Shown piece after piece: positions 2,751 through 55,700 of a stretch of 64,000 nt of DNA. Origin of the DNA: Cyanidioschyzon merolae (taxonomy: Eukaryota); assembly GCA_000091205.1 (NCBI GenBank), contig AP006500.2; one strand, given 5' to 3'. The position numbers and the translations under genes are program-made. The notes below the pieces were generated by a model. The model was given only the letters and a program-made list of their open reading frames with translations. It searched no databases and was not told where the DNA came from. Each line of letters starts with the position of its first letter. Within the stretch, counting starts at the first letter, position 1.

Positions 2751-2774
2751 GCAGCAGCAGCAGCAGCAGCAGCG
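2751..2774. repeat. (CAG)8 microsatellite
   Basis: ggcagcagcagcagcagcagcagcagcg. Confidence 0.9.
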
Positions 2775-2879
2775 TCGAGACCTCGTTCTCTAGACTTGTG
2801 TCCAATGAAAATGGAAAAATAAACTGTTTACTCGGTTCGTGTTTGTCGATTTTCTTTTGGAAATTTTATTCGGATGCTA

Positions 2880-3200
2880 AGCTTCGACACTGAAAGTGCT
2901 GTCATACGGGCTTGTGGATTCTCACAGAACGCCAGGATGCTCGGTCGTCGTTTCCGATTGGCTGCTTTGACCTGCTGCCGCTGGAATTCGATACGTCACT
3001 GGAATGCAGATGATTCGCGACAACCTCGAACTGTTCTTCGTCCAATAAACGATATCATTATTCGATGCAAGTGTACGAGCGTCCGCTCCTCGAATTTCCT
3101 TCCTTGTGGCATGCCCATATCCTGCGTTCTTCATGTGATCGATCTCTCTCTGATTCAACCCATATCATAGGCAGAATACTTCGCAATAATGGATTGATGC
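2880..3200. repeat. Degenerate partial copy of dispersed repeat family R4 (the sequence that forms the inverted-repeat arms at 33.9-37.8 kb)
   Basis: Read by eye, 2985-3100 matches the right-arm segment 36600-36720 (ctggaattcg...gattcgcgac...aaataa..atatc.ttattcgatgca). The antisense ORF 2922-3158 repeats the arm-ORF peptide ...ASNNDI.Y..K...R.SRI...PV..RIPA... Confidence 0.45.
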
Positions 3201-5419
3201 GAAACAACTCGGTTTCGATCCTTGATGACTTGTTCGCAAGCTCATGCCGAATGTTCACTGTACCTACCATCTTAAATATGCGATTTCGTTCCAAATGCAG
3301 ATGCTGCTGTATCTGGAGCCGTTGACGAAACGGGGCTCCACAACGCCAGCATACCTTTCGTGACACACGCCTCCGGTGGATCGTGTTTCTTTTGTTTGCG
3401 TAGATACTGGTCTTGGACTCGAGGTTTCGTCATCGCAACGATTGCTTGCAGTGGACCGTTCGATTTCTCTTTTTCCACAGCTGAGAGCGTAAATGGATCG
3501 AAAGTTCTCGTCTTCTACGTATCTGGATTGTATTTCCGGTACTTGTCCTATCCGGCGCATCATCCTGTTCGGTAAATCCTTTATTGAATGCAGCAGATTT
3601 CGCTTTCGCACATAGCGGACAGCAGACACATAGTGCGGATCACCCAGAAGAAGCCCTTGGTCTAAGGGTACAGCACCGAGCGTGGAAACGGAAAGGAGCA
3701 TCGAGGAGAGTCTTCTGCACCCGACAACGGTATTTACGGAGCGAGGAAGCAAGCGTTCGGGCCTCACGGCGGGCGGCGGCCACAGGAGCAGGATGAGGAG
3801 GTGCTGTTGACGTATACGAAACACACGACCACAATCGACTTTCATTGCTGTGACAGACCCCATCGAGGCTGTATTTAGAGAAGATCAACATGATCTGCGA
3901 GGCTTCGATTGCAACCATTGCTTGTGCATGAAATGTATCGACAAGAGCTGGATGCACTGAGATAGGGACATGAACGCTGCCATCAACATCCTTCGACTGC
4001 TGAGAATGGAACTAGAAGGACAGAGGACAACGGCGTGTTCACAAGTGGAGATAAGCGAGAGGCAAAGGCTGCGATCTGCTGGTGAACATTTACCGAGAGT
4101 TTAGGATCCACGCCCGAATCGCAGGGCCGGCTTCATTTCTACTCTGACATGGGCGTAGACTACATGCCAATAGCGCTGTCCGCTGGGCGTGGCGTGTTGA
4201 ACACCGCTACTCGCGAGCGATGAACAGATTCTCAACGGCAGTTTGCTTCACGTCATAGCAGACCAGCTACACGCACTATGGTTGCTGTTCCTTCAGCAGA
4301 GCAACAAGATTTATAACGAATGCAAACGATGCTTTCGAAAGACCGAGCGGATGCAAGATTCGTCAATCGATGACGATTCTGGTGCGTTATGCCGTCCTCC
4401 ATGGATTCATGGCTTTGGATCTTCTTCACAGCGTGATTTCCTGTCGCAACAGGCGGTCTCCGGAAAACATCATGATCGTCGTGTTCTGGATACACGCCTG
4501 AAACAGGTGCCATTGTCCTCGGGCAAGGCGACTGCGCTGCATGCATTCTCGAGGAAAATGGGTATCTTGCCCGCGTCTACTTCACGAGGAGCCACAACTT
4601 CTCCAATCGGACGCCGTTTATCGATTCCCTGGACGCAAGTTGCAGCGTTCTCACCTCCCCGGATTCGATACGCAGTGCAGCGCGAGACATCAGGTCTACC
4701 AGAGGCATCGTTTGACCCTAACGACCTCTTTCCCAGAGGGCACGCTGTTCGTCGCCGTCTGGTGTGCACTGCGAATTGGCATGCACGGAGTCCGTCAACT
4801 TGCCACGAATATGCCGAATGAGGAAGCCTGAATGAACACTGCCCCAGTGATAGGCTGCATCGTCTCATGGTTGATTCGGAGCAAGCGCCGCACGTGAGTT
4901 TGCTGGAGCACTGCATTCGAAACTTCGTAAACGGATGCGCGCGGCTCTGGTCCTAAGCGGGCTGCCATCGACGCATTCTTCGATGCACAGCGGGGACGCT
5001 TTGCATTCACAAAGCCACGAATGAGCACTCGTTCACGCAGCCAGGTTCCCACTGCACAAAAAGGCGTTCCTGCATCTCTCCGAGACCGCGCCTGTGTTTC
5101 GAGAAGAGTTTCCGAAGAGACTCTCCTTGCTTGTTTTGCTTTCGATGTATCCGTGAATTTAAAGCTGCAGGTTTCCCGCCATGCGCGCACAATTTATCCC
5201 GTGAACAGGTACGAGCATCTCTGTACTTGGTGGACCATCGAAGTATTCACCTAGCTATCCTTTCGGGCGCAAGTTCTTGCCAGCCCACGTTTTTCATGAC
5301 TCATGATCGGTGCGTTCAACCACATGCCCTGGTACGCCAACCTCGATTCCAGGAGATCCTGGATCGAAGCGTCACTATCGTCACACCATCACAGAGAGAA
5401 GCGCTGTGTACCGGCCCTG

Positions 5420-6130: not shown

Positions 6131-6286
6131 GGAATCGCAAGCGACGCAAGCGCCGACCCATTTCGCTAGAGCGCTTATCTTTGCAAGCCTTGTGCGGTCT
6201 GTTTTCAGTTGGAAGAGCGTTTGGCAGCGAACTCGTTCTATCCGTCATAGGAAGCACCGCTGCGCAGAAGACTGACCAAAGTGTGA

Positions 6287-7378
<1,092 letters not shown>

Positions 7379-10884: not shown

Positions 10885-12130
10885 CGAATGCCTTCCAAGC
10901 GCCAAACGCTGTATAGGCGGTGTTTAGGAGTGGCGAGCGGTGCGCCGCCCGCAACTGACTCTGCGTCTGCCCAACAACGTGCAGACGCCTCCTAGTCTTT
11001 CTAGACCGGCCACCTATGAATGGGTTCAACTTCTTCCGGTATTATTCGACCTTGAGAGGTTCCTTCACAGGGTAAGTTCGCGTCAGCTCTGCGGGTCTCT
11101 TCTGCATCACCGCATATCTCCTTCTATTGATAGCAACGTGAAGGCCTCGATGCACAAACTCCATGCATACATCACCGCTGGTTGAATTCATCAGTGCAAG
11201 GATTCCTCGACGGCGTGCCCTGTGTGCCACTACAGTCTCGGTATCGCCCGTCGGGCAAACATCTTTTCCTGACCATCTCGCCTCTTCTTGTTCCTCGTAT
11301 CACTTGCTCTTCTTCGCGCGAAGAATCGGCGAGGAGTTTTTCCGTTTTTTTTCCGGCAGCCGGCGATGCCAGCTCTCTAGGATCCCCAATTTGCGTATTG
11401 AAATTTTTCCCTTACATTTTTTCTTCTTCGAATGAGCGCACGTCGAACGCATCTGCTATGAACCACGAAAGAGCATTGAATGTCAAACACCAGGAAGTAA
11501 AACACATTCGAGGTGAAAGACGTGAACAGGTTGCATAGAGGGCGCTGGGCGCAACACCCGTGCATGAGTCGCACAACTGTACAATCGTGTATGTTTAGGA
11601 ACTATTATGTTCTACGTGCTAGGCACCGCCGCCGTCGCCAGTGTGCGCATGCCGCAACGCATACAATACCTCCGCGGGGTATGACGCTCTCGAGCAGCGC
11701 AATGCCTATCGTCGGTGCTCGCAGTGGACGCTTTCGACTGAAATGCGGCGCATCCTACGAGGGCCTGAATTCGTTTCCGCATAGGCGTATCGATCCGAGT
11801 CTACAGCGAGTCTAGCTTCTCTTCCAGGAGCGGTAGGTCGCTGGACAATGCACTCTCGACGCTGATCATGCGTGGCTCTGGTGAAAAGGTGTATGCGACC
11901 TGGGAGCCTGCCTCAGAGGGAACGGGCGATGTTCCCACTGAATTTTCTTCATCAGGATGCTGTGGACGCAGAGGAGCACGGTCTGCTTCGCAATGCTTCT
12001 GCTGGGCTCACCAGCACGAGTCACATCTTCGAGAGGGTGCTCAGTGTGCACCAGTGCCGCCCAGCTCAAACAATTGAGTTGCTCGCTATGATTTCACGGG
12101 TTCTGGGGATGTAGCCGGTTGCGGATAGCT
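10885..12130 (-). mobile_element. Internally deleted (non-autonomous) Fanzor-family element with its right end (RE), a C-terminal coding remnant, an N-terminal remnant, and degenerate spacer and R2
   Basis: 10885-11045 matches the conserved 3' non-coding region of copies A and B (gtgcagacgcctcc.agtcttt..gaccggccacc). 11045-11295, minus strand, encodes a remnant ...ETVVAHRARRRGILALMNSTSGDVCMEFVHRGLHVAINRRRYAV... homologous to the copy-A C-terminus, with RuvC-III degraded (RDFNAA to RGLHVA). 11295-11560 matches the N-terminal/NLS region of copy B 57950-58150. 11560-12100 is weaker homology to the spacer and R2. Confidence 0.55.
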
Positions 12131-19189: not shown

Positions 19190-19440
19190 AGGAGGTGGTG
19201 GTGGTTGCGGAGACAGCACGCTATACTATTCAGGTAGGTAGGTACGCTCTCGGCACACCGGGAGATCCAGAATGCGTCGAGGCCATTGCTGGATATGCCC
19301 ATCTTAGAACGAAAAGAGAAGGACAGCACGCTATACGATTCAGGCAGGTAGGTACGCTCTCGGCACACCGGGAGCTCCAGAATGCGTCGAGGCCATCGCT
19401 GGATATGCCCATCTTAGAACGAAAAGAGAAGGAGTTCTTC
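19190..19440. repeat. Tandem duplication, ~110 bp x2
   Basis: cagcacgctata..attcagg.aggtaggtacgctctcggcacaccgggag.tccagaatgcgtcgaggccat.gctggatatgcccatcttagaacgaaaagagaagga occurs twice, starting near 19214 and 19324. Confidence 0.6.
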
Positions 19441-20189
19441 TTGCGAACACCAGCGAACATGCTAAAGTTTCGGTTCAGTTCCACTATGATCAGCATAAGC
19501 CTGCGCGGGCTCTTTCCTGCGACTGCTTTCTTCCCGATTCCTTTATTTCCAGCTTAAAGTGCATCGGTCTCTCATGTGCTGCCAGCACCGTTGTCAGCAG
19601 TTCAAGGTTCTGGATCCTGGCGTTGGAGTCTCGATGACGCTATTGCCAGCTGTTGTCGACGCATTTCATGCACGGGCAAAAGTTGCGATCGATGCAGTAC
19701 GTACGATTTTTCATCTCCACCGTATAAAGCCTCGGTGCGCCGTTCGCAGCCGCTACACTTGACAATCGTCAGGTGTTGCCGTATTTCCACTGCACATCCT
19801 CTTGCTCAGCGGGCCGCATGTGGCGCGTGAACGCTTACTTCATCGCTTGGCACATGTCGTTGACGGGTCCAGAAGGCCCTCCTTGATACCTCCCTGGCTT
19901 TTCCCGCCATATGCCGCATGCGACGATCACGGGCTTCCTCTGGGCGTTCCGGTGGCGAGTACTTTGTTCGCAACACAGCCACGCGCACGCTGTACGATTC
20001 GGTAGAAGAGTTTCGGAAGGCGATTTCGTCCGTGCGAGAACGAGACCGAGGTAGAAAGTCGAGGTCAGACAACGTGACGAGATCATTCGATCCGGCTGCG
20101 CTTCGAGCTTTCAGCGGCGATACGCGACTTCCAATGGACATGATCCCTGCGATGACTGAATTCTGAGTGCGACACTCCTTTCCATGGAA

Positions 20190-20340
20190 GCAGAAGCGCC
20201 GAAAAGCCTCGGATGGCGTATCCTGTAAACGGTACCATGCTCATGTGGAATCCGGTTTGATCGATAGCGAAGAAAAACGAAGGATTCGTTTTTCGAACGG
20301 AATCGATTATTATATGACGTGATGATTTCAGCGGACATTC
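20190..20340. repeat. Small dispersed repeat R3 (second copy at 41960-42100)
   Basis: c.tcgga.ggcgta.cc…catgctc.tgt…tcga.agc…aacggaatcgattatt..gacgtga…tcag is shared between 20190-20340 and 41960-42100. Confidence 0.4.
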
Positions 20341-20559
20341 GATGTGAGTTTCTGGAGCAGTCGTCAAGCGACCACGTCGAGGTTTCTTTTCGTCAGTATA
20401 GGAGCGTGAATCGCTGCGCCTGCGACTTGCCCAGATCTTAGCGATGAAAAACTTGAAGCCTATTTGATTTGCGCATGTCACCTGTGAGGACGGAGACGCG
20501 TGGAGGATAACGCGTTCTGGTAAAATAATGAGGCAAGTTATTTTGCGAGTCCTTGTTCA

Positions 20560-21000
20560 CGAGCGATGCAGGTTATCTCGATTCGTACGACGGTACGAGT
20601 TCTAGCGGCAAGGCGTCGAAGAAGCCTCCCCGAAAATACGACCGAGAATGCTGAAACCACGCATGTATCCGTTCGTCTTTATTGATGTTTTTCGATTCCC
20701 GAAGTTGTCCATTTGAAACCAAGGATTCCTCGAACTCGTACCCTCTCTGTGCCACTACAGTCTCATTGTCGCTCCGTCAGACAAACACATTTTCTCGGCA
20801 ATCTCCTCCCCTCTTCTTCTTCTTTCCCGTCACTTGCTCTTCTTGGCTCGACGGTCGCCCAGAAGAATATTATTTTCGATTTTTCCTGCAGCCGGCCGCA
20901 CAGGGCCTCCAGGATCACTTACTTTTATGTCCATAATTTTCCCTTGGATTTTTTATCTCTTCAATTGAATACATTCTTTAGACCCTTAGGTGAGAACCTT
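20560..21000 (-). mobile_element. Second internally deleted Fanzor-family derivative; same deletion junction as 10885-12130, more degenerate
   Basis: 20740-20990 aligns base-for-base in pattern with 11220-11470 (…aaggattcctcga…ctgtgccactacagtctc…cctcttctt…cacttgctcttctt…ccggc.gccgg…ttttcccttggatttttt…), spanning the junction between the N-terminal and C-terminal regions. The 3' portion at 20560-20700 is a weak match to the RE. Confidence 0.5.
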
Positions 21001-30873: not shown

Positions 30874-32997
30874 TTGAGTCACCGAGTCCAGCAGGACGCG
30901 CTGGTCCCAGCACTGCAGCACGGACACTTGGACGTTGACGCTATGCCGCTGACTGACCCCGGTACGAATGGACTGCACCTCATTAGCGCGTTGCGGGTTG
31001 CACCCGTGCCTGTTTGGCTCCAGCTGTGTGTGCTGTCATTTGCAGCGTACCACACGCTGGTGTTGCTCGGGATGTTGCTGACGGGGCGCGGCTGCTCGAC
31101 CTTACGGTACCGACGGGTGTTTCAGTTTTGGATCGTTTACGGCTTCAGTAAGTTGTGCACCGGAGCAATTCGTGAGCTCTTTCGAATCTTGTGGCTCGTG
31201 ACGACCTGGGGCTCGAACACCGCTCACTTGTCGGGAAGTGACCTGCTCGTTCGTCGCCTGGTCCGAGCGCATTCCTGGCTCGAAGCGCTTATTCTGATGT
31301 TTCTCGTTTTCCCGCTGCACCGCGGGTTAGCAGATACATTGGCACCTTTGCTCTTTTTTGGCGGCACTTACCAAGTTGAACCCGCGCGTCGAGCGAACAG
31401 TGGAGCGGAAACACGCGCATCGCCGCTTTCCGCGCATACGTCCGCAACGAACAGCCCCGGTGCACGGTCGCATAGCGTTGGCAACGTTGAAGGAACCTCC
31501 TTTCGAAATCGAAGCTGGTTTCCGCGTGCAAGTCGCCTTCGTCACCGATCGGGGTACTGGGCGTCAGCCGCATCGCCGCTCTTCGAGTGCGCGGCCTTGG
31601 TGTACCAAAACTTGTTACTACCAAACCTGGAAACCTGGGAACCAGAAATAGACCTTTTTCTAGGGCGTGTGCAGGCACAGCTACGCCAGTCACGGCTTGC
31701 GTTCAAAGAGTTGCTCTGTTTCGCTTTGGCGTGGATGCTCGCCCGTAGCGGCAACGCAGCAGAGGCCGCCATGCTCGGGAACGCTGCCCTGCACGGAGCC
31801 CAGATCGGCCTTGCGGAGCGGCTAGCGCGCGTTCGCCGTGTCGCTGCTGCGTGGCTCGAACGGGATCACCATCTCGAGGCGCTGTATCGAGGTGAATATC
31901 GAGATCGACGCGGACACGTGTACGCACGGCATGCCGTTGAAGGGATGCATGTCACCGGTGCCGCTGCTGCTGCTGCTGCTGCTGATGGTACTGATGCTGC
32001 TGCTGTGCGTGAGCGGTGCACGCATGCTGATACGCGGGAAGTGCACGGAGGCGATGCCCGCTCGAGGCAGCGCTTGTCGTCTGCTGAGCGCGCTACACGG
32101 GTTCATGCTGGGGACTCCGAGGCGAATGTCCGTGATGGAGCCATATATCGGGGAACTTCGAAGCAATGGACACCTGGTTCACCGGCTGGAGCGTCTGGTC
32201 GCGTTGTTGAGCGTTTCGAACTTGGCAAGGAGCCCGACAGCGATCATGTGTTGGACACTGAGCCAGAGCACGCACAGTCAAGTGCAGTTGTTGACGCACG
32301 TTCCAGAGCGGTGCATGTTATGTCTGTGACGGAATTAGAATCCATGAAAGAAGCTCGGTTTCCTCGTTTGCTTGCACCGAAAATGGAACCAGAGCGATTT
32401 CCATATGCGTGGTGCTCCGCAGACGAAGCAGCCATCAGGCAAATGTACGCAGCGGATGAGATCGTGCGCATGCCGCGCTCGTGCCGATACGGAGCCGCTC
32501 TGGGGCCGTCATCATCGGTACTGCTGCCGTCGCAGGCACCACGGTCGGCGGTGGGGGTTCAGCGCTCGCGTGCGAGCGGCTGGTGGCAGACCCTCGTCAC
32601 CGCATTCCATGCGGGTGTCCGCAACTCCACAACGCACACGAATCGTGATGATGATGATGATGGTGATGACGGTGCTTGTGCATTCGCGGGTCAGGTGGAT
32701 GACGGGACGCAGTGTCCACCACCGGCCTCGAAAGCGGGTGAAGCGGGCGCGCCGGCATTACGAGGTCTTTCTGAGACTGATTTTGGCCAAATCAGCTCAG
32801 AAGGAGCTCATCCAAATGCAGCGCTCCATGGCTCCATGCTTCTACACAGACCAGGGGCGTACAAAGCGACTTTCCTCAATGAGTCCAGATCCTGTTATCT
32901 GCAATCTCGGACGCGAACGTATGAACGCATCCGAGCGCTGCGGAGACAGCTGCAAATGCAGCGTCAGCAGCGAACAGCTGATGCCATCAGCACCTAG
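30874..32997 (+). CDS. Hypothetical protein with N-terminal hydrophobic segments and (GCT)n/(GAT)n-encoded low-complexity tracts
   Basis: Long 707-aa ORF with several predicted TM-like stretches (…VPVWLQLCVLSFAAYHTLVLLGMLL…, …LILMFLVFPL…). I recognise no family; it could be partly spurious. Confidence 0.3.
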   Translation: MSHRVQQDALVPALQHGHLDVDAMPLTDPGTNGLHLISALRVAPVPVWLQLCVLSFAAYHTLVLLGMLLTGRGCSTLRYRRVFQFWIVYGFSKLCTGAIRELFRILWLVTTWGSNTAHLSGSDLLVRRLVRAHSWLEALILMFLVFPLHRGLADTLAPLLFFGGTYQVEPARRANSGAETRASPLSAHTSATNSPGARSHSVGNVEGTSFRNRSWFPRASRLRHRSGYWASAASPLFECAALVYQNLLLPNLETWEPEIDLFLGRVQAQLRQSRLAFKELLCFALAWMLARSGNAAEAAMLGNAALHGAQIGLAERLARVRRVAAAWLERDHHLEALYRGEYRDRRGHVYARHAVEGMHVTGAAAAAAAADGTDAAAVRERCTHADTREVHGGDARSRQRLSSAERATRVHAGDSEANVRDGAIYRGTSKQWTPGSPAGASGRVVERFELGKEPDSDHVLDTEPEHAQSSAVVDARSRAVHVMSVTELESMKEARFPRLLAPKMEPERFPYAWCSADEAAIRQMYAADEIVRMPRSCRYGAALGPSSSVLLPSQAPRSAVGVQRSRASGWWQTLVTAFHAGVRNSTTHTNRDDDDDGDDGACAFAGQVDDGTQCPPPASKAGEAGAPALRGLSETDFGQISSEGAHPNAALHGSMLLHRPGAYKATFLNESRSCYLQSRTRTYERIRALRRQLQMQRQQRTADAIST
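31961..32005. repeat. (GCT)n microsatellite inside ORF 30874-32997 (poly-Ala/Leu coding)
   Basis: ccgctgctgctgctgctgctgctgatggtactgatgctgctgctg; a (GAT)n run follows at 32645-32674. Confidence 0.85.
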
Positions 32998-33907: not shown

Positions 33908-35505
33908 ATTGGTGTCAGCATAAAATGGAGCAGGTCCACGAATACTGGCTAGCTCTCTAAAAAATGGGCCTCTTCTCCTGGCCGTCAGCGCCAGCCACTG
34001 TGGGATTTTTCCGTGACTGCTTCTTGTTTTATGTTTCTTGTATCTGAAATGAAAAACCGCGGTCTGTCCTTTTACTCTAGATCGGTTGTCACTAGTCGAT
34101 GGATATTGAGGAACACGTCCAAGCGCCGATGTGGCCGATTCAAGCTGTTATCGACGAATATCATAGACACTCGATCGTTGTGAGCTACGCTTCACTCGCC
34201 ATTTTCATGTTATTTATACAGAGCCCCAGTGCGTCCTTCGCGGCGGTGGCGCTTAACTCTTTTCAGATGTTCCTATACGCGCACCAAACATCCGCGGGCT
34301 TCTCCTCCTTCTTCTTCGAGCACCGCCACGTGACACGGGAACGCTTGCTTCGTCCCTAACCACACGAACTTGACGGGTAGCGTGGGGTTCCTTCGATGTC
34401 TCACTCCGTTTCCGCGCCTCAGTGCTGTACCCTAGGATGACGGGCGTCGTCGTCGGCAATCTCCTCGGCGAGTGTGCTGTTCGCAGGACACGAAAGCGTA
34501 GGCTGCCCCATTCGGCTGCGGATTTGTGGAACGCGATATTGACCATGACGAAACAGTGTCTGGAAGGAAACCCGGGCCTGACGAAGCACTCGAGAGATCC
34601 AGTTCCATCTACGCTCCGTTCGTGCAGCGGATTTGTGGAACGCGATACTGACCATGACGAAACAGTGTCTGGAAGGAAACCCGGGCCTGACGAAGCACTC
34701 GAGAGATCCAGTTCCATCTACGCTCCGTTCGTGCAGCGGATTTGTGGAACGCGATATTGACCATGACGAAACAGTGCCTGGAAGGAAACCCAGGCCTGAC
34801 GAAGCACTCGAGAGATCCAGTTCCATCTACGCTCCGTTCGTGCAGCGCGGTGAAGCAGCCTCCGATAGAAGCGATCGCTGCGATAACGCAAGTCCGAGTC
34901 CAAGACACTTCTCCATGCAAACCGAAGACACGCGGGCCTCTACGAGCATACCCCGTGCAGCGTCGCACGCTGTTGTTGGCTCGCGCTCCACCGATAGCGT
35001 CAAAACGGGTAGGAATTGTTGTTCGGTCGATTTCAGCTAATGGAGGCGACAAGGTCAGTGAGCTTACGTTATGAGCTTGTACATACGACGTTCAGGGACA
35101 GCATCGACTTTTTCGTTTCCACGTCAATCCACCAGCGCCAACGCCTGCACCAACGAGTTGCTTTGAACGAGAACGATCGAAAACTTGAGCAGTGTCTGTG
35201 CTGCGAGCCTGCTATACGTCGGGCAAGGACAGGTGCGGCGGCTTGTACGCATGCATCGAATAACGATATCCGTTATTTGAGGAAGCCTTGTCTGAGGGCG
35301 TCGCGAATCGTCTCGACCCCAGTGCCGTCACGAATTCCAGCAACGACGAATTGAACGGGAGACACTGCAACAGAGACCGACCGAGACTCCTACAACTGCG
35401 TATCGGTTCGTATGCTCTTATTGCTGAACTTCAAATGTTGAGGCCGTGCTTCTAAAAAATCTTCGGAAAACTATCGAATGGTTAGAATGGAGCGAGCGGC
35501 TCAAT
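33908..35505. repeat. Left arm of large inverted repeat (R4 family element) with internal 109-bp tandem sub-repeats
   Basis: Near-identical reverse complement of 36425-37812. Arm ORFs 35016-35354(+) and 36589-36927(-) differ at 2 of 112 aa; 34099-34359(+) and 37366-37626(-) are almost identical. The outer ends match (ggtctagattggtgtcagcataaaatggagcaggtccacgaatactggctagctc…). Confidence 0.85.
34506..34860. repeat. 109-bp tandem repeat, ~3.3 copies, inside the left IR arm
   Basis: Unit cgtgcagcggatttgtggaacgcgata.tgaccatgacgaaacagtg.ctggaaggaaacc.gggcctgacgaagcactcgagagatccagttccatctacgctccgtt. Identical ORF starts at 34633 and 34742 (period 109). The right arm carries about two fewer copies, which accounts for the ~210-bp difference in arm length. 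Confidence 0.7.
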
Positions 35506-35529
35506 GCTCTCTATTACGCCGAAACGACT

Positions 35530-36201
35530 CTAAAAGACGCACGTATTAGCTGCTGCTGTACCATCGGCCGAGGCAAAGCGCGTCCGAAGTTGTTCCCATA
35601 CTGCCGCTCTTTCCGATGAGACATCACCAACCGGACTGAGAAACATACTCAGTACCACCTCCTCGCCTGCCTTCTCGTGCCCGAGCAAGCGAATGATGTA
35701 TGTCGGTGTCGAGGGATCACCCCGACTGACGCCCTGTTCAAAACGCGCCGCACGAACGCCGCTGAGAAGAATGTGTAGATCCATGTTGATCGATAAGTCG
35801 ACGACGTTGGCGTAGAGGCCTCGGCGTGGCACCTCAGCGTAGAAGAGTTTCTCGAGGGTTGCGGTCGACTCAAGCACAACCGCCGCGTTCGTCGCGATAA
35901 AACGCAATTCGCCTAACTCCTTGCATGCTTCCAAAAACTCCACAAGACGAGGAAACTTTCCTGCAGCTTGGTCAACCGTCAACCGTCCGGGAGCTTGCGT
36001 TGCCATGCGCACAACGCTTCCCGTGCGCGCACGCCTTCGAACAGGGCGTGCGGCAGCCAGCGACGCGCTGTTCCAGGGCAGCAAACGCGTCCCATGAACG
36101 AGATCACGGTACACTGCCGCACAATGTAGTGCAGTATGTGTGCACCCACTAGATCTTGTGCGTTCTTCAAGCCTCAGCCTATTCAAGCCAGTGACAAACA
36201 T
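35530..36201 (-). CDS. ChuX/HutX-like heme-binding domain protein (tentative) with ~65-aa N-terminal extension
   Basis: 223-aa ORF filling almost the whole 919-bp spacer between the IR arms. The core ...LVEFLEACKELGELRFIATNAAVVLESTATLEKLFYAEVPRRGLYANVVDLSINMDLHILLSGVRAARFEQ...TYIIRLLGHEKAGEEVVLSMFL... has the conservation pattern of bacterial ChuX/HutX heme-utilisation proteins. This is recalled from memory and not searched. Confidence 0.35.
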   Translation of the reverse strand: MFVTGLNRLRLEERTRSSGCTHTALHCAAVYRDLVHGTRLLPWNSASLAAARPVRRRARTGSVVRMATQAPGRLTVDQAAGKFPRLVEFLEACKELGELRFIATNAAVVLESTATLEKLFYAEVPRRGLYANVVDLSINMDLHILLSGVRAARFEQGVSRGDPSTPTYIIRLLGHEKAGEEVVLSMFLSPVGDVSSERAAVWEQLRTRFASADGTAAANTCVF

Positions 36202-36424
36202 CGCTGGAGTTGATCGCAGTCCAAATGGAGATCAGCGAGTGCTGCAATCGATGTCAGCGCCGCTCGCGTTCCATCTTCGCAGGAGCCGTAGAGGAAATCG
36301 TACATGAATGTATATCTAGGGACAGTAATGGACATGAGCGCCTTCGCCCGATGCCGAGTCTCCAGCAGGGCCGGAGGGTCCGTGACGCACCGTCACTGTG
36401 ACGCGCACGTGGAACGCTAGACAC

Positions 36425-37812
36425 ACTCAGATGGAAGATGCAGCCGCTCGCTCCATTCTAACCATTCGATAGTTTTCCGAAGATTTTTTAGAAGCACGGC
36501 CTCAACATTTGAAGTTCAGCAATAAGAGCATACGAACCGATACGCAGTTGTAGGAGTCTCGGTCGGTCTCTGTTGCAGTGTCTCCCGTTCAATTCGTCGT
36601 TGCTGGAATTCGTGACGGCACTGGGGTCGAGACGATTCGCGACGCCCTCAGACAAGGCTTCCTCAAATAACGGATATCGTTATTCGATGCATGCGTACAA
36701 GCCGCCGCACCTGTCCTTGCCCGACGTATAGCAGGCTCGCAGCACAGACACTGCTCAAGTTTTCGATCGTTCTCGTTCAAAGCAACTCGTTGGTGCAGGC
36801 GTTGGCGCTGGTGGATTGACGTGGAAACGAAAAAGTCGATGCTGTCCCTGAACGTCATATGTACAAGCTCATGACGTAAGCTCACTGACCTAGTCGCCTC
36901 CATTAGCTGAAATCGACCGAACAACAATTCCTACGCGTTTTGACGCTATCGGTGGAGCGCGAGCCAGCAACAGCGTGCGACGCTGCACGGGGTATGCTCG
37001 TAGAGGCCCGCGTGTCTTCGGTTTGCATGGAGAAGTGTCTTGGACTCGGACTTGCGTTCTCGCAGCGATCGCTTCTATCGGAGGCTGCTTCACCGCGCTG
37101 CACGAACGGAGCGTAGATGGAACTGGATCTCTCGAGTGCTTCGTCAGGCCCGGGTTTCCTTCCAGACACTGTTTCGTCATGGTCAATATCGCGTTCTACA
37201 AATCCGCAGCCGAATGGGGCAGCCTACGCTTTCGTGTCCTGCGAACAGCACACTCGCCGAGGAGATTGCCGACGACGACGCCCGTCATCCTAGGGTACAG
37301 CACTGAGGCGCGGAAACGGAGTGAGACATCGAAGGAACCCCACGCTACCCGTCAAGGGCGTGTGGTTAGGGACGAAGCAAGCGTTCCCGTGTCACGTGGC
37401 GGTGCTCGAAGAAGAAGGAGGAGAAGCCCGCGGATGTTTGGTGCGCGTATAGGAACATCTGAAAAGAGTTAAGCGCCACCGCCGCGAAGGACGCACTGCG
37501 GCTCTGTATAAATAACATGAAAATGGCGAGTGAAGCGTAGCTCACAACGATCGAGTGTCTATGATATTCGTCGATAACAGCTTGAATCGGCCACATCGGC
37601 GCTTGGACGTGTTCCCCAATATCCATCGACTAGTGACAACCGATCTAGAGTAAAAGGACAGACCGCGGTTTTTCATTTCAGATACAAGAAACATAAAACA
37701 AGAAGCAGTCACGGAAAAATCCCACAGTGGCTGGCGCTGACGGCCAGGAGAAGAGGCCCATTTTTTAGAGAGCTAGCCAGTATTCGTGGACCTGCTCCAT
37801 TTTATGCTGACA
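36425..37812. repeat. Right arm of large inverted repeat (R4 family element)
   Basis: Reverse complement of 33908-35505. The inner end at 36425 (gccgctcgctccattctaaccattcgatag) mirrors 35470-35505. Confidence 0.85.
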
Positions 37813-38049
37813 CCGGTGTAACACGAGACACTTGCCACTGTCGCGCTTCTATCCGCGTGCATGTACGTATGCTCGAGTTACCCGCCCCGTTGCCGGCGAC
37901 GTAATGAACAAGCTCACTTGGCGCACACCTAAAGACTCCCAAGCATCACGCTTTGACAGGCTCTATTATACCACACTCTTTGAAAGAAACAGCGCCACAC
38001 ACAGTATCGACGAGATATCTCGTTGCTATGACCTGCGCGGCGAATACAG

Positions 38050-40782
38050 TCACAAATGCGGATGCTCTGATGCAGCATTGCGACGCTTGTCTCGCGATTG
38101 TTGAGTCGCTTCGGGAACTTGGGTCAACGATACGGGCGCCTCGTACATACTCTGCGCAGCGCCGGTTGGCAGGAGTCCTGCTGACTCCGCTGCGAGCGCA
38201 TCGAGCGACTCTGCCTCTGACGAAGGCTGAAGCGCACCTGACGCTGCTGCGATGAGTTCCTGAAACAACGCATCCAGGCTGTTTTCAGCCAGCATGCGGG
38301 GTCGTAGTTGTTCGACGCGCTCCGAGGACACCAGTCCGGCAGTGAGCAGTGCATCGAAGACAGACATATGTAACGTCGAGTCCACTGGGGCATCGGGCGA
38401 CGTCTGCTCAGGCGAAGAGATCGCAATAAGTGGCTCGCTGGCGTCCTCGTGCTTGTCAGCGGGTGCTGCAGCCACTGGAGCTGTCGTCGTTGCTGATGCC
38501 GTTGTTTCACCGAAAAACAGAGCTAACGAGTCCGCTGCGGGTACCGGATTCGTTGCCACTGGCGCTTGCAGCTCGGTGCTTGTGTCTTGGTGCTTTTCAG
38601 CAGCCTGGTGCTTCGATGCCTCGGTTGACGGTACCAAAGGCAGCGACACATGTAAAAGGTTCGCATTTTCCGGCAGACATGAGGAAAACGTCGCTCCCGC
38701 GGAAGTGCACGCACTCCATGCGCAGAGCAGACAGCCGTTCGTCCATGCACTGGGCACAGCGAATGCTACCGCATCTCGGTTTCTCAGTGCATCTATGGCG
38801 TCTGTGCGAACGTCATCCACTATTGAGGAGGTTCTCAGTGGGGCACACTGCGGATGTGCTGCGGCGGCTTCCGCAGTACCTGCTCGAGGCGTTGGGTCGG
38901 TGTCAATGAGGGTCGTACTCTGCGCTACGCGCGCTTCCATGGTATCCATTACGCTCTCTGGACGAACCGAAATCTTATCGAGCGATTGTGCGCACTCCAC
39001 CGCGTAGCTCAGAACATCTACATCGTCATCTTCGAGGCCAGCGACCAGCAGGCTATTGAGTGCGCGCCAAGCTCGATCCGTGGATGTCCTTCGCGCCGCG
39101 AGCGTTCGAGCAAGACGTAGCAACTCGAGGCGCACTGGTGCAGCCAAGAGCAATCGATGCTGCTGCTGTTGCTGCTGCTGCTGCATCCATCTTCGCAGCA
39201 CCTCGTCGGCGACAGTCCCAATATGATCGATCATCGTGCCTACGATCCAGAGAAAACGACTTTGTGTCGGCGAGTCGGACTCGATCCATGCCGCATTGAG
39301 CACAATCTCTTTTAAGAGATTTTCTGCTTGACTTATGCGTTCCCGAGGCGTCGTCCGTAGCGCTCCCACTGTCATGCGCAGCAGCAGAAGGCCAACAGCA
39401 CCATAGACTGACGGCGATACGACGCTTCGGCTGCGCCAAATGTCGATGAGTTGCGGAATAGCGGCAGCACTGCTTACCGGATGCACTGCTGCCATTAAAG
39501 CCAACGCACGTGCTGCCATAATAGCAAGCTCTTCGCCACGGCACTTCAACAGCGGCACTAGCCGATCCATAATCGTGATGCACAGCGTCTCCTCGAATTC
39601 GACAAGTTTCACCAGGATGCCCAGCTGATGGCGATACACTGCCGGTTCATCAGTGCCGATCGTCGGCACAAACAGGGGCGCGTACCTTGTCAAACACGCT
39701 GGTTCACGCCACGCGAGCACGTGCAGCATTCGCAGGGCCAACACTTTCAGGCCGCTCTCGTGATCCAGCGCGTAGCGAAGCAGCGTTCGCACCACCGTCT
39801 CCGTGACGTCGTTATCGCTGGAGCGCCTCAAATGGTACAGCGTTAGCGCACCGCTCACAGCGACCGCTGCCGACAGGGACTCTACAGCTTTCCTGGCGAG
39901 TCGGTCGACGGCTTGCACAAAGCGGGTAAGCTCTTCACCGCAGAGTGTCTCTGTCATTCGCTCGGGCCGCGTTGTAGTACGCAGTAGGACGTAGCGCAGC
40001 AGCTGATGCAGTGCTATCGGGAGCAGGTTCCCCGGAATCGTCTGGTACTCTTCATCTAGTCGCTCGACCAGCGACACGGGAATGTTGAGCATTGCATCTC
40101 GATCTAGCATGCCCAGTGCTGCAGCAGTTGCAACCAGTACGGGTGCTTCCCGGTCATTTAACAACAACTGCCACAGAGGTGCCGTCAACGCCGAAGCAAT
40201 CTGCTCAACAGGCAGCTGGTGGAGGCTTTGCGCAGGCTCCGCACCGTCGGGCTCGTTCCACGTTAGCACTGGTGGGATACTCAGGGCTGCGGTGAGTCGC
40301 ACTTGCGGATGACGGTCCCGCACACCGCGGTGAATCGCCAACCACATAACCTGGCGTAGAGCGGGAACACGTAGCGAAGTCAGTAGGCGGAGCGCCTGAC
40401 TCCGCACCCAAGGGTCATTGTGCTGCAGGTCCTTAAACAACGCGTTAACCGCCAAGAGGACCAAATGCGGTTCGTCGTCCGCATGCTGCTGCAGGAATAT
40501 GCACACCAGTCGTTTCAGTTCATAGTCTGCTTGCAGCAGATTGCTCACCACGGCGGGTAGCAACTTGGCTACGGGCTGGCCCTGAACGCTGAGCGCTAGC
40601 ACTCTCTTCAGCGCTTCCCTGCGAACCTGTGCGTTGCCCTGTTCAAGCTGGAGTCGTAAAAGTGCCCAGTCTGTGTTCGCATCGTCCAAGTACGAGGCGT
40701 CTGTCCAGTTGCCCGCTAACTGAGACGCCAGCGTTGTCATCGCCGAGGCGGTACAGCCGCGAACTCTCCCCTGGAGCACCAC
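38050..40782 (-). CDS. Adaptor-protein complex large subunit (adaptin N-terminal HEAT/ARM domain protein)
   Basis: N-terminus ...REALKRVLALSVQGQPVAKLLPAVVSNLLQADYELKRLVCIFLQQHADDEPHLVLLAVNALFKDLQHNDPWVRSQALRLLTSLRVPAL...HPQVRLTAALSI... is collinear with the adaptin N-terminal region (compare AP beta/delta/epsilon). A long C-terminal Ala/Ser-rich appendage follows. Which AP complex cannot be resolved. Confidence 0.65.
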   Translation of the reverse strand: MVLQGRVRGCTASAMTTLASQLAGNWTDASYLDDANTDWALLRLQLEQGNAQVRREALKRVLALSVQGQPVAKLLPAVVSNLLQADYELKRLVCIFLQQHADDEPHLVLLAVNALFKDLQHNDPWVRSQALRLLTSLRVPALRQVMWLAIHRGVRDRHPQVRLTAALSIPPVLTWNEPDGAEPAQSLHQLPVEQIASALTAPLWQLLLNDREAPVLVATAAALGMLDRDAMLNIPVSLVERLDEEYQTIPGNLLPIALHQLLRYVLLRTTTRPERMTETLCGEELTRFVQAVDRLARKAVESLSAAVAVSGALTLYHLRRSSDNDVTETVVRTLLRYALDHESGLKVLALRMLHVLAWREPACLTRYAPLFVPTIGTDEPAVYRHQLGILVKLVEFEETLCITIMDRLVPLLKCRGEELAIMAARALALMAAVHPVSSAAAIPQLIDIWRSRSVVSPSVYGAVGLLLLRMTVGALRTTPRERISQAENLLKEIVLNAAWIESDSPTQSRFLWIVGTMIDHIGTVADEVLRRWMQQQQQQQQHRLLLAAPVRLELLRLARTLAARRTSTDRAWRALNSLLVAGLEDDDVDVLSYAVECAQSLDKISVRPESVMDTMEARVAQSTTLIDTDPTPRAGTAEAAAAHPQCAPLRTSSIVDDVRTDAIDALRNRDAVAFAVPSAWTNGCLLCAWSACTSAGATFSSCLPENANLLHVSLPLVPSTEASKHQAAEKHQDTSTELQAPVATNPVPAADSLALFFGETTASATTTAPVAAAPADKHEDASEPLIAISSPEQTSPDAPVDSTLHMSVFDALLTAGLVSSERVEQLRPRMLAENSLDALFQELIAAASGALQPSSEAESLDALAAESAGLLPTGAAQSMYEAPVSLTQVPEATQQSRDKRRNAASEHPHL
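39159..39184. repeat. (GCT/GTT)n microsatellite inside adaptin gene (poly-Gln on coding strand)
   Basis: gctgctgctgttgctgctgctgctgc; encodes the QQQQQQQQ tract of the 910-aa protein. Confidence 0.85.
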
Positions 40783-42239
40783 ACAGCCGCGTTAGAGGAC
40801 GAGTATTGGCCGTTGCAGTGTACGGCCTGGGCAACAGTGACCTACAGTGCAGAAAGAATCTTGTCCGAAGACGCAGCGAGAAAATCTAGAAACGTACTGG
40901 TCTGAGCTTGCTGAGAAACAAACGCAACTCGAACGAGATGCGTCCAGTAGCACTCGCGCTACCAGTTTTCGGGCAACGGAACGCTGCACCTCCGGAGCCG
41001 CTTCCAGGTTCTACCAGCAACACCAACACCTTGTAAATTTAGACCTGTGCTCGTCCGCAGCGTCAAGGCACGAATCCCCGACTGCCAGGCTTGGGTCCCC
41101 GGTGTTACGGCACGGAGGCGAGGTCGTCCACCGGTGTCTCCTGGGAAATCCTGTCTCACGCTAGCCCATACGCCCTTGTCAGTGTAAAAACGGGAACAAG
41201 TCGACGAATACCGGCGCAGACACTCATGGATGTGTCGCTTATCGATGTCATCAACACGTGTGTGCGCAAGCTTTTTCTGTGAATGCCTCCTTTTCCTCCC
41301 ATACATCTCCGGCTTTCAACACGGTAGTATGCTTTCTTTCCCATGTTTACGGTTGTCAGCAGTCGAGGAATGTTGATGGCATCTTTAAACTACCGATTTC
41401 TCCGTTTCCGGTGAAGGTCTGCGTATTTCATGTACAGGCCAAAATTGCGATCTATATTTCGCTTACCACATTCATCTTCGTTGTACACAGCCTCGGTGGG
41501 CTTTTCTGGCGATGACTATTTGCTATACACAGGCACGCTGATCTATCCATCCAGCTGAGGCGCTCCTTGGAACGCTGCCCCCATAGCGTATGAAGCCAAG
41601 CTTCATCGCCCGGTACACACTCTTGATGGGTTCAGAGAACTATTCTGGACGCCCTATTCGTTTTCCATGCCAGACGCGGCACCTCACCACCAGAGGCTTC
41701 CTCATGGGATTATCCTGTCGGCGAGTGCGCTGCCAGCTGCACATGCCAGAACAGGCTGTTCCGTTCGATCGAGCACTTGTGGAACGAGATTTTCTTCTTG
41801 ACAAATCAAGTACTGGAAGAAAAATTCCAGCAGGGCATCGTTTTGATCGATATCACTCCGTCTACGCCCTCTGGGTGCAAAGCGGTGACGCACGCGCCAC
41901 TGTTCATCGATCGCTGCGATGCCTCAAGACCGAGTCCAGGACCCGTGTTCATGCAAAAAAGAGAAACGAGCATCTCTCGGAGCGTACCCAGCGCCAGGTG
42001 ACATGCTCCTGTCGATTGCTGTTTCGTCGAGAGCTAAAAAGAGAAGTGGATTCCCCTCTCAACGGAATCGATTATTTGACGTGACAAGTTCAGAGAGCTC
42101 TTGGTATGAGCTCGTGAACCAGCCGTCATGGTTGCTTTGGGACAGAAAAATTTCAAGATTTGAAGAATACGTGATCTAGGCATTCAACTGGTTCATAAAG
42201 ACGAAGCGTGCAGTCTTCCATGTATGCATTGGATGGATG

Positions 42240-42450
42240 ATATCGGTTATTGTCACGAACCCGTGTTCCAGGGCGTCGTGAATCCTCTTGATCCCGGTGA
42301 CGTAACGAATTCCAGTGGGAAACCGCCAGAGAAGCCATTCCTGGAAACACAACCAGCAATCCTTGATCCCCTAGTGATGCACTGCGAATATCGCTGCTGA
42401 TCATCTAAAAACATACTTCGGAAGACTAGTTCGAAATGCAAGAACAAAGC
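42240..42450. repeat. Fragment of R4 (inner ~210 bp of the IR-arm element)
   Basis: Matches 35270-35505 (…gggcgtcg.gaatc.tct.ga.ccc.gtg.cgt.acgaattccag… …tctaaaaaa..cttcgga.aactat/gttcgaa… agcgagc…tca..gctc). Confidence 0.45.
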
Positions 42451-42600
42451 GAGCAGTTCAGAGCTCCATTTTATGTTCATACGGGTGCTGCGATCTGCCG
42501 TCGCTGCTCCTTGTTTGCTGCGAGTCATATCCTACCTGCATTTCTGTTTGCGTTCATCAACGTACTTCCAGCGTCCAAGTGACGGGGTTGCGTCTGCCTC

Positions 42601-52728: not shown

Positions 52729-55700
52729 GAATGAATGCAATCGCCCCTAAACCAGTATCAGGTTCAGAACTGGAACGCCGAACTGTTCGCTCTGTTGCTT
52801 CCTTGCAGTGCATTCCGAAATTTTGCTTGGACGTACAGACTCGACATTCGATGGGCAGCAATGGGAGCCTTTGGGCGCACACACAGTTTTAGGATTCTTC
52901 GTCGTCATTTCCGAGTGGCACCTTCGACGCTTTGCTGCTGCCATTGGTTGCACGTGACCTTTACCAAGGTGACTCGCCACGTTATTCACCAAGAATTCGT
53001 CATATAACCCGTATCACTATCCAGTTCAATCGCACAAATTTCGACACTTCTCCTTTCGAAAAGTTGGGTATGCTCCAATCAAATACTCCTGAACCTTTAG
53101 GTGTCTATCTTACAGAGCAGCTCGTGGGCGCTGCCATTCGCACCGCTGGATTGATGGGGAAAAACACCCGAACGTCTTCCTTTTGACGCCTTGTGCACAT
53201 GTACATGCTGAAAGTTCACCGAAATTCTCATATTAGATACTTGATTCGTTTCGAAGGCCAAATTATTTTTTGCGGCAAGTAACGAAGCTGCATTCGGCAG
53301 CAACATGATATCTCTCACGGGATATGCTCCCAGAGGCTCCCGTCTATTTTGTTTGCAGGTAAAAGGGTCTTGGATTCAGAACTGATTCATCGCTGTGAAT
53401 GCTTCCAGCGGAGCATGCTTTATCGCTTGGCATGGAGCAGACGTCGAGGGATCGAAATTACGCAAGCGAACCTTCACCCTGGACTCCCTTCCGTTTCCTG
53501 GTTCATCGTGGGCAACATCACATTCCGGGGATTCTATCGAATGAAATGTTGTCCGCTTGTGTTTGCAGCGAACAGAGTACTCGCTGACGGGGTCGCCCCG
53601 AAGGAGCCCATAGCTGTAGGTTACGGTAGCGAGCGCGCAATCGGGTAAGAGAGTCTGTGAAAGCCCTCTGCATCCGTCCAGGGCATCTACGGGGCGATGA
53701 GGCAACCATTACGCGCCACAGGACGGCCCTAGGAGGAGGTCATTTGGTTTGCATATGGGAAGATTCGACCTCAACCATACGTGACCGCTGCAGAGGGCGC
53801 ACAGCAGCTGGATAAAATGAAACTGAAAGTGGCACGCGAAGGGTACACTCCAACTACCGCCTGTGCATGAAATGCGGCACTAGGAGCCGGAAGCTGCGAA
53901 ACTGAGACTTGAAGGCGCCAATCAGCCTCCTTTGACTGTTGAGAACAGGGCTGGGGCGAACGGAGAGACCGGCGTATTGAAAGCGGGAGATACGAGAGAG
54001 TAAATGAAGCAGTCGCTAAACAAACGCGCAAAGCTTGTTGTTGATGTCAGTGGAACGAGAACCGAACTTGAGCGTGGATGCCCCTGTTAGATGACCTCTC
54101 CTGTTTAGTTATACCGCGATGCCAAACAAAGACACGCCGAAACTTTGGTGACGAGAAATCCCGTAAGAAGACTGCGAATGTTTTGATGGAGTATTGGTAC
54201 GATGGCACATACTAATGTCTCTCGGGGACGCCATTGGATCCAAACTTTGGGGATCCTAGGCTCATCTAAGACGCCACTATCAGAGTAGGTCGTGCGGAAC
54301 GTGGTCGCGGTGCAAAGTACGAGCGCCATACGGCATGTACTCTGGGGAGCGTAGAGCGACGCGGTTCGAGCTCATGGACACGAGGGGTCTTCGAGATGAT
54401 TGTGCCATCATGTCATCTAACAAGATCCACAGTATATGCAGATTTGCGGATCATTACGCTTTCTGCTGGAATCCTGCGGCATTTCAGACCGCATACGGGT
54501 ATTCATATCCGTGAACAAGCTGCAAAGTCGATGAAAGTGGTTGCCGCAATGGGACTCCCAGCTCATAGACGCTCCTCGATCCGAGAGAAATGCCCATATA
54601 TCTCGTAGTTCGATACCCGATTGGCTGTTGGCGCAAATACGAGGTTGCTCACGTACCGTCTAGCGTTCGATCGTGCGTCCTCATGAGGATTTTATGCTGG
54701 GAAAGCCAGCACAAGCACCGCTCAGGCGAACCAGCCTGAGTTGGGCGCTCTATCCTCCGTCATTTTCATTTCTATTCAATTTGAGTGGATTCGCGGAGGC
54801 CTGCCAACAGACCTCTCAAGCTGCAAGCGGGCACGTTACACGTTGTGCGCCTCCACCACTGAGTCTCTCGGACACAGGCACTGTTGCGTTATTCAGGTAT
54901 GTGGGCATCGATACAAGCTTCGCAATACAGCGGCATGGACGTGCAACTGCGCCAAACGACGGCGCGGTAGCATTCCGCAAGCCCTGTTCAGCAGAGCGAC
55001 CAGCGCTAGGCTGTTCGCGCATGAGACCTGGCGCTTTCCTAAACCCCGAGACCTTCATGAACGTCATCCGTGGACAAGACGAGGTGCGCATCAATCGAAT
55101 AAATGTCGAGCCAGACGTATCCTGCGCCCGCAAAAACTGGATACACGGGCATCAATGCCTGGAAGGCTCCATGTGCGAGACTCCCGCTATTTGACGTCCG
55201 GTATCTCCGCTACCTCCGATTCTACGACGAATGCTGCGCGGTCAGTCTACAGGAAGTTTTTAACTCGGGCCCCGGATCCGATATAGACTGGACGCGAACC
55301 ATGTCAAATGCCTCGCCTGGAAAATGCCTGAGTGTCACCTTCGTCAAGTACCACGGACCGAGCGAGGCGCGTTTGCAAATGGTGAACTGGTTGCGAGTCC
55401 TTAACAGCTCCACCGATGACTAGCTAATCTGTCAACACTGGATACGCCTCAACCGCGCTCTTCGTTCCGAATTCTGATGAGCTTCGGCATACGTCAAGGC
55501 GATCAGGCAAAGCGTCTTCATCGGCTAAGGAACTGTACTCCAGAGCGGGGGCTCGCAATCGCTCGTTGCCCAACAGTCCAGCACGCGAACCTCAGAGGAT
55601 CAGCATTCCATGTAGAATTCAGAATGCTGGAGGCGGCGCGTAGATGAAGACTAGGCTAGATATAAGCACTCACATCCACAAACAGATGGAAACGTTTGCG

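Follow-up and report, generated by a model that had tools for sequence, protein, structure and literature searches.

A ChuX/HemS-fold protein gene between two inverted repeats of probable transposon origin in Cyanidioschyzon merolae: a probable plastid-lineage gene rather than a captured bacterial passenger

Is a gene that lies exactly between two inverted repeats the passenger of a mobile element, or did the repeats come to lie around a gene that was already there? This question is raised by an open reading frame (ORF) of 223 codons with an ATG start on the reverse strand of the red alga Cyanidioschyzon merolae, situated in a stretch of 64,000 nt from contig AP006500.2 (assembly GCA_000091205.1), the whole of which we refer to as the window. 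An initial annotation, made from the letters of the window only, had tentatively described the product as a bacterial-type heme-binding protein of the ChuX/HutX kind with a basic N-terminal extension of ~65 aa, and the gene as a possible horizontally acquired passenger of a composite element. The ORF and the two arms that enclose it are present exactly as first described, and the arms are 99% identical (Table 1); 28 nt separate the stop codon from the left arm, and 240 nt separate the ATG from the right arm. The product is identical to the C. merolae 10D protein BAM82634.1/XP_005538670.1, which is annotated as 'hypothetical protein, conserved', and a neighbouring 709-aa ABC protein is identical to BAM82632.1. 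Considering all evidence presented below, we regard it as likely that this is a nuclear gene of cyanobacterial/plastid derivation, encoding a plastid-targeted tetrapyrrole binder with the HemS/ChuX fold, and that it is a bystander bracketed by repeats.

Age and descent of the gene

The locus can be compared directly with that of two other cyanidiophytes, Cyanidiococcus yangmingshanensis (L001) and a second species (L002). In both of them the gene order Prenyltransferase/FKBP/PHD/unknown/Adaptin_N/ChuX-like/convergent ~650-aa gene/ABC_tran+TOBE_2 matches the C. merolae window gene for gene. Around the ChuX-like gene of L001 and L002 there is no inverted repeat of 30 nt or longer, and searching the two loci with nhmmer returned no copy of the family to which the arms belong. 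The gene has been at this chromosomal site since before the split of Cyanidioschyzon and Cyanidiococcus and, as its syntenic orthologs lack the arms, it is older than the repeats at the site and thus a bystander, not cargo.

This leaves little room for the view of the gene as a recent acquisition from bacteria that is carried between the arms as the passenger of a composite transposon. Indeed, the gene sits exactly between inverted arms of 99% identity, the arms come from a transposon-like family and the characterised members of the protein family are bacterial; however, such an origin would have to accommodate not only the orthologs that two other cyanidiophytes have at the syntenic site, without any arms, but also a protein family that is spread over plastid-bearing eukaryotes and cyanobacteria, arms that hold no intact ORF and whose ORFs give no significant Pfam match, the absence of a direct repeat (target-site duplication) just outside the outer arm ends, and four other copies of the repeat that carry no such gene. 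The base composition of the gene is that of its host as well: the G/C content at third codon positions (GC3) is 0.558 (neighbours: 0.544-0.633) and the codon-adaptation index is 0.744 (neighbours: 0.756-0.782), so that neither GC3 nor codon usage carries a foreign signature. We therefore consider recent capture from bacteria very improbable, and this part of the initial annotation has to be given up. The arrangement does recall bacterial composite transposons, in which two inverted copies of a mobile-element-derived sequence likewise enclose a single gene (insertion sequence-cargo-insertion sequence), but the arms in C. merolae are decayed, without transposase and without target-site duplication, and the 'cargo' occupies the same site in relatives that have no arms.

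The distribution of the protein family points in the same direction. An exhaustive HMMER scan of 1.84 billion cluster representatives yielded only 51 representatives that belong to it. Homologs occur in red algae (Cyanidiococcus, Cyanidium, Galdieria partita and Rhodosorus), in green and streptophyte algae (Volvox, Pleodorina, Mesostigma, Chlorokybus and Spirogloea), in land plants (the liverwort Riccia, the fern ally Psilotum and the gymnosperm Taxus) and in the heterokont Vaucheria. Across bacterial genomes (one per species) we obtained at least 544 matches confirmed by tblastn, the best 80 of which are all from cyanobacteria; the cyanobacterial homologs are ~135 aa long, have no extension and score above the Pfam ChuX_HutX threshold (40 bits). 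The more distantly related the organism, the lower the sequence identity of its homolog to the C. merolae protein. In a rough neighbour-joining tree this protein falls within the cyanidiophytes, next to other red-lineage sequences, with the green lineage apart. Homologs are hence confined to cyanobacteria and plastid-bearing lineages, and in this tree their phylogeny tracks the host lineages. Taken together, the distribution, the tree, the order of identities and the restriction of N-terminal extensions to eukaryotes (see below) bear the signature of endosymbiotic gene transfer with subsequent vertical inheritance: the gene would have come from the cyanobacterial ancestor of the plastid and would now reside in the nuclear genome of C. 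merolae.

Fold, putative targeting and candidate ligand

Which protein does the gene encode? The best sequence match among solved structures is 3fm2_A (phmmer, aa 85-210), and a profile of 33 family members compared with the PDB gives E-values of 6.1e-51 for 3fm2, 1.7e-6 for HutX, 3e-5 for HemS and 1.4e-4 for ChuS. An AlphaFold model built on the 33-member family alignment reaches a predicted local distance difference test score (pLDDT) >90 for aa 71-223, and of ~50-60 for aa 1-70. Its core has the alpha/beta fold of HemS and ChuX, i.e. an antiparallel sheet with helices at the periphery. With this model, Foldseek ranks 3fm2 first (template modelling (TM) score 0.82, normalised to the target; root-mean-square deviation 1.5 Å over 127 columns; 36% identity), followed by ChuX, HutX, PhuS, HemS and ChuS at E 4e-5 to 1e-3; for ChuX (6u9j, 2ovi) and HutX (5exv) the probability is 1.00 at E 4e-5 to 2e-4. 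In addition, precomputed matches to the Pfam family ChuX_HutX (PF06228) exist for several of the orthologs. The protein thus has the HemS/ChuX/HutX fold, and the guess of the initial annotation was right at the level of the superfamily; within the latter it falls into a clade of its own, represented by 3fm2.

The known relatives differ in how closely they resemble the C. merolae protein. 3fm2, a structural-genomics entry for the protein Ava_4353 of Anabaena variabilis ('putative heme-binding protein, distantly related to HemS'), likewise has a single domain whose fold matches over the whole core, carries Arg, Glu and His at positions that are invariant in the family and shares its clade with many cyanobacterial homologs, but it lacks the N-terminal extension and is encoded on a bacterial chromosome. 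The match to 3fm2 places the protein in a clade but assigns it no activity. ChuX from Escherichia coli O157:H7 and HutX from Vibrio cholerae, the cytoplasmic heme-binding and heme-transfer proteins of PF06228, share the fold and the small single domain; however, they are only 15-20% identical to the C. merolae protein, which scores under the Pfam gathering threshold and, unlike them, is eukaryotic, nuclear-encoded and equipped with a presequence, its gene lying outside any operon for heme uptake or degradation. The two-domain heme chaperones and degraders HemS, ChuS, PhuS and ShuS (PF05171) are tandem duplications, whereas the C. merolae protein is single-domain: its core matches one of their two halves (HemS residues 37-162; profile E 3e-5 to 1.4e-4), with a His where HemS has Arg102.

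The N-terminal extension of the initial annotation was confirmed, together with its basic character: aa 1-65 contain 12 Arg, 11 Ser/Thr and 3 Asp/Glu. Among the members of the family, extensions are found only in eukaryotes, and there in nearly all of them. All three cyanidiophyte orthologs start with Met-Phe, and a Phe near the N-terminus is typical of the transit peptides of rhodophytes and glaucophytes. One homolog from the MMETSP collection starts with a signal peptide followed by 'ASAFMAP', which we take to be the heterokont plastid-targeting motif, known as ASAFAP. Most likely, the extension is a putative plastid transit peptide, i.e. a basic presequence of ~65 aa with a Met-Phe start that would direct import into the plastid.

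As to the ligand, Arg100, Glu111 and His143 are invariant among the 33 aligned family sequences (alignment A1) and again in a second alignment (A2). In the profile alignment the column of His143 contains a His in V. cholerae HutX and Arg102 in HemS. The characterised proteins of this fold that Foldseek retrieved (ChuX, HutX, HemS, PhuS and ChuS) all bind heme (PMC10404700), and in bacteria HutX and ChuX/ChuS hand heme over to heme-degrading enzymes (PMC10404700, PMC12670364). By analogy, heme or another tetrapyrrole is the most likely ligand of the mature protein, with His143, Arg100 and Glu111 as a putative pocket. The mature protein of ~150 aa might then act as a carrier or buffer that supplies heme oxygenase or other plastid enzymes with its ligand, as ChuX, HutX and HemS suggest.

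Several observations weigh against this interpretation as a whole. The match of the C. merolae protein to Pfam ChuX_HutX (E 6.5e-5) covers aa 85-153 only and does not reach the gathering threshold (23.3 vs 25 bits), the match to HemS being weaker still, and none of the NCBIfam models matched the protein. Nothing relevant came from searches of the literature on ChuX in chloroplasts, on 3FM2 and on the accessions of the protein. The family tree is a rough neighbour-joining tree with no support values. Three further points, i.e. a conserved internal Met, a natural variant of His143 and the genomic context in cyanobacteria, also count against it, and each of them bears on an alternative for the targeting or the ligand.

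The internal Met is Met66, which opens a conserved motif, 'MATQAPGR', so that a shorter cytosolic product from an internal start is possible. Residues 1-65 would then not serve in import into the plastid: Met66 could be the start of translation and the product a cytosolic protein of 158 aa, or the extension could be a mitochondrial presequence, Arg-rich presequences being compatible with mitochondrial import too. The sequence 'MATQ(A/S)PGR' from Met66 onwards is indeed conserved in three cyanidiophytes and the sequence upstream of it is not, and the extension is absent from the Cyanidiococcus annotation P0004 (149 aa) and from a metagenomic Cyanidium gene call, P0027 (161 aa). On the other hand, in C. 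merolae and Cyanidiococcus the upstream reading frame remains open over 65-67 codons, in L002 an extended stretch is open as well, and all three start with Met-Phe. Moreover, nearly all algal and plant homologs carry extensions, one of them with a bipartite heterokont plastid signal, and the family is limited to cyanobacteria and plastid-bearing lineages. We therefore regard a cytosolic or mitochondrial protein as unlikely and keep to import into the plastid.

Less easily set aside is the alternative that the fold was kept while the role is not heme handling, the protein having another small-molecule ligand or serving a structural or regulatory purpose in plastids and cyanobacteria. The environmental, C. 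merolae-like haplotype P0011, found in four contigs (L003-L006) from several samples, carries His143Gln (CAC>CAA), and this natural variant means that His143 is perhaps not essential, or that the allele is perhaps defective. In two Nostocales loci (L078, 6345-7187; L065, 6459-7259) a PhoH gene precedes the ChuX-like gene and a DUF6816 gene comes after it on the same strand, with SRP54 and KH-domain genes nearby and no genes for heme uptake or degradation; the C. merolae gene also lies outside any heme utilisation cluster, its neighbours being an adaptin gene and an uncharacterised ORF. The name that NCBI gives to a cyanobacterial homolog goes no further than 'heme-like substrate-binding protein'. 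Yet ChuX, HutX, HemS, PhuS and ChuS, which share the fold, all bind heme (PMC10404700), and the invariant His of the family lines up with a HutX His and with Arg102 in the HemS pocket. A role other than heme handling is, in our opinion, possible but doubtful, and binding of heme or another tetrapyrrole remains our preferred assignment.

The inverted arms and the orientation of the spacer

If the gene is a resident of its site, what are the arms? Their identity of 99% is far beyond chance: they differ by 11 substitutions and by an indel of 218 nt, the length of two additional 109-nt tandem units in the left arm, and their inner 415 nt are identical. An error in the 10D assembly was rejected as the source of the inverted repeat, as both arm/spacer junctions are present in independent environmental assemblies (L006, L010 and L106). 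The window contains six copies of a repeat of ~1.35 kb, all of them intergenic, namely the two arms and four diverged copies (nhmmer E 1e-34 to 1e-52). The four diverged copies are ~55% identical pairwise, and the homology among all copies starts and stops at the arm boundaries. An arbitrary segmental inverted duplication was rejected as well, since the ends of the arms coincide with the ends of the dispersed repeat unit.

None of the copies shows codon periodicity or an intact ORF, and tblastx matches of the arms occur in all frames. The ORFs of the arms match no Pfam family significantly, the sole direct match being DDE_3 at E 0.056. The majority consensus of the copies contains a weak DDE_3 core of the IS630/Tc1 type ('AIDETGF...YAPRGSR...VIAAI'; Pfam E 1e-4 to 7e-4, 19.9-22.3 bits vs a cut-off of 28.6; NCBIfam IS630 E 4e-4) and, downstream of it on the same strand, a zinc ribbon of the TnpB/Fanzor type that ends in 'HRDLNAAINI' (Pfam Cas12f1-like_TNB E 2e-5 to 4e-4, 20.9-25.2 bits vs a cut-off of 26.3; TnpB E 0.067). 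No intact relative of the ancestral protein was found in the PDB by sequence or by profile, and a search of 5.8 billion proteins for one brought up nothing but a further decayed copy (P0084/L107). Neither Rfam nor tRNA scans, run on the region from 30 to 44 kb and on the whole window, found anything; the arms thus carry no known RNA gene. A metagenome scan with a 27-mer from the inner end of the arms hit two contigs only, both from this locus, and is uninformative on other young copies.

The arms probably derive from an old, decayed transposon family and came to bracket a resident gene. In the C. merolae lineage, two full repeat units would have come to lie in inverted orientation in the two intergenic regions of the gene. 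The two arms share the same defects although the repeat family is old and decayed. For their likeness we infer, as the likeliest explanation, two old inverted insertions that were homogenised by gene conversion, the alternative being that one arm is a recent copy of the other. The family may be related to the Fanzor1 element CMe-1A, which lacks terminal inverted repeats and of which ~150 copies, ~80% identical to their consensus, were described in C. merolae (Bao & Jurka 2013; PMC3627910). Like CMe-1A, the arms belong to an old, diverged and dispersed C. merolae family without terminal inverted repeats, which contains the remnant of a TnpB/Fanzor-type zinc ribbon with 'HRDLNAAINI'; however, the arm unit measures ~1.35 kb and CMe-1A ~3 kb, and the arm family also has an IS630/DDE_3-like remnant. 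In L002 three tandem repeats of 112 nt, with a period near the 109 nt of the arms, lie between genes, downstream of the 653-aa gene (11010-11293); nhmmer with the arms found nothing in L002.

Two long inverted repeats around a short spacer may also recombine. Indeed, in environmental contigs of C. merolae-like organisms we found the spacer in the 10D arrangement (L003, L004, L005, L094 and L103) as well as inverted relative to 10D, with the 3' end of the gene connected via an arm to the adaptin gene (L007, L012, L093, L095 and L104). Arm, spacer and arm could thus form a naturally invertible (flip-flop) cassette in which recombination between the arms reverses the gene, both isomers being present in wild populations. 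The protein haplotype P0009, which occurs in both arrangements, and the arm alleles, whose patterns of single-nucleotide polymorphisms are mosaic between strains, are in line with such a cassette, the latter not being decisive on the inverted contigs. However, short-read assemblers cannot phase across the inner 415 nt, in which the two arms of 10D do not differ, and obvious chimeric joins close to the ATG occur in the same datasets (L103, L104 and L105). The two orientations could therefore reflect a real flip-flop or an artefact of short reads and chimeras, and we propose natural inversion only tentatively.

Contigs from one JGI/Logan sample series (L007, L008, L009, L094, L096, L100 and L101) end exactly at the start codon (36201/36202). 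In three other contigs unrelated sequence follows beyond the start codon, i.e. in L103 (1-115), in L104 (1-355; AT-rich foreign DNA) and in L105 (1-88; a piece from the 3' part of the same gene). These ends and joins point to chimeric assemblies or to a structural breakpoint in the samples concerned. In L103 a gene for a 670-aa WD40/BING4CT protein (5303-7328) lies past the upstream region of the 707-aa gene, where 10D has the ABC transporter gene, which reflects either a different synteny in that strain or another chimera.

The features of the locus are collected in Table 1. Two trinucleotide runs of the CTG/CAG type lie in the genes on either side, one within the adaptin gene (39146-39184), where it encodes poly-Gln (QQQQQQQ), and one within the 707-aa ORF (31947-32003); both are ordinary low-complexity coding repeats.

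Table 1. Coordinates of the ChuX-like gene, the enclosing arms and further features of the window
Feature	Position	Strand	Remarks
Coding sequence, ChuX/HemS-fold protein (223 aa)	35530..36201	-	BAM82634.1; cyanidiophyte orthologs 68-78% identical
Conserved ChuX/HemS-fold core, aa 85-210	35572..35949	-	3fm2_A E 2e-15; pLDDT >90; Foldseek TM 0.82
N-terminal extension, aa 1-65, putative plastid transit peptide, Met-Phe start	36007..36201	-	Cyanobacterial homologs without it; pLDDT ~50-60; frame open and Met-Phe start in 3 cyanidiophytes
Codon of His143, candidate ligand-pocket residue	35773..35775	-	Invariant in family alignment with R100, E111; Gln (CAA) in one environmental haplotype
Unique spacer between the arms, 940 bp: coding sequence plus 240 nt upstream and 28 nt downstream	35502..36441		
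Left arm, 1591 nt, full unit of decayed ~1.35-kb repeat, three 109-nt tandem units	33911..35501	+	
109-nt tandem units within left arm	34515..34847	+	Right arm holds one unit, 37096-37210
Right arm, 1373 nt, second full unit of ~1.35-kb repeat, inverted	36442..37814	-	
Diverged copy A, repeat family	2765..4160	-	~55% identical to arms; nhmmer E 1e-34 to 1e-41
Diverged copy B, repeat family	19412..20738	+	
Diverged copy E, repeat family, upstream of adaptin gene	41176..42458	+	
Diverged copy F, repeat family	52781..54117	-	
Adaptin_N gene, upstream neighbour, synteny anchor	38050..40782	-	Pfam E 3.7e-39; likewise beside the gene in L001, L002
Convergent downstream neighbour, 707-aa ORF, no Pfam family, synteny anchor	30874..32997	+	Counterparts 647 aa (L001), 653 aa (L002)

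Implications

Had a composite element captured a bacterial gene in a eukaryote, this would have been notable; that reading is refuted. What has been gained instead is a place for a 'hypothetical protein' of a model red alga within the HemS/ChuX fold and within a clade of cyanobacteria plus plastids. This clade has a solved structure (3fm2), and the C. merolae protein is a previously unnamed plastid-lineage member of the HemS/ChuX superfamily.

The locus itself is a clean natural case of a resident gene between two near-identical inverted, presumed transposon relics, which would be homogenised copies of a known kind of C. merolae repeat. It may offer a way to quantify inversion and gene conversion within a nuclear genome that is very poor in repeats. 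Going further, one may speculate that there is an uncharacterised heme or tetrapyrrole carrier of plastids and cyanobacteria, conserved in cyanobacteria, red and green algae, bryophytes, ferns and gymnosperms, and that in C. merolae its gene sits in a flippable cassette with 1.4-kb arms that occurs in both orientations in nature. If this were true, the carrier would be a candidate for the poorly understood handover of heme between plastid enzymes. Gene targeting is easy in C. merolae, which makes the protein a tractable entry point to the question whether plastids use a ChuX-like tetrapyrrole carrier.

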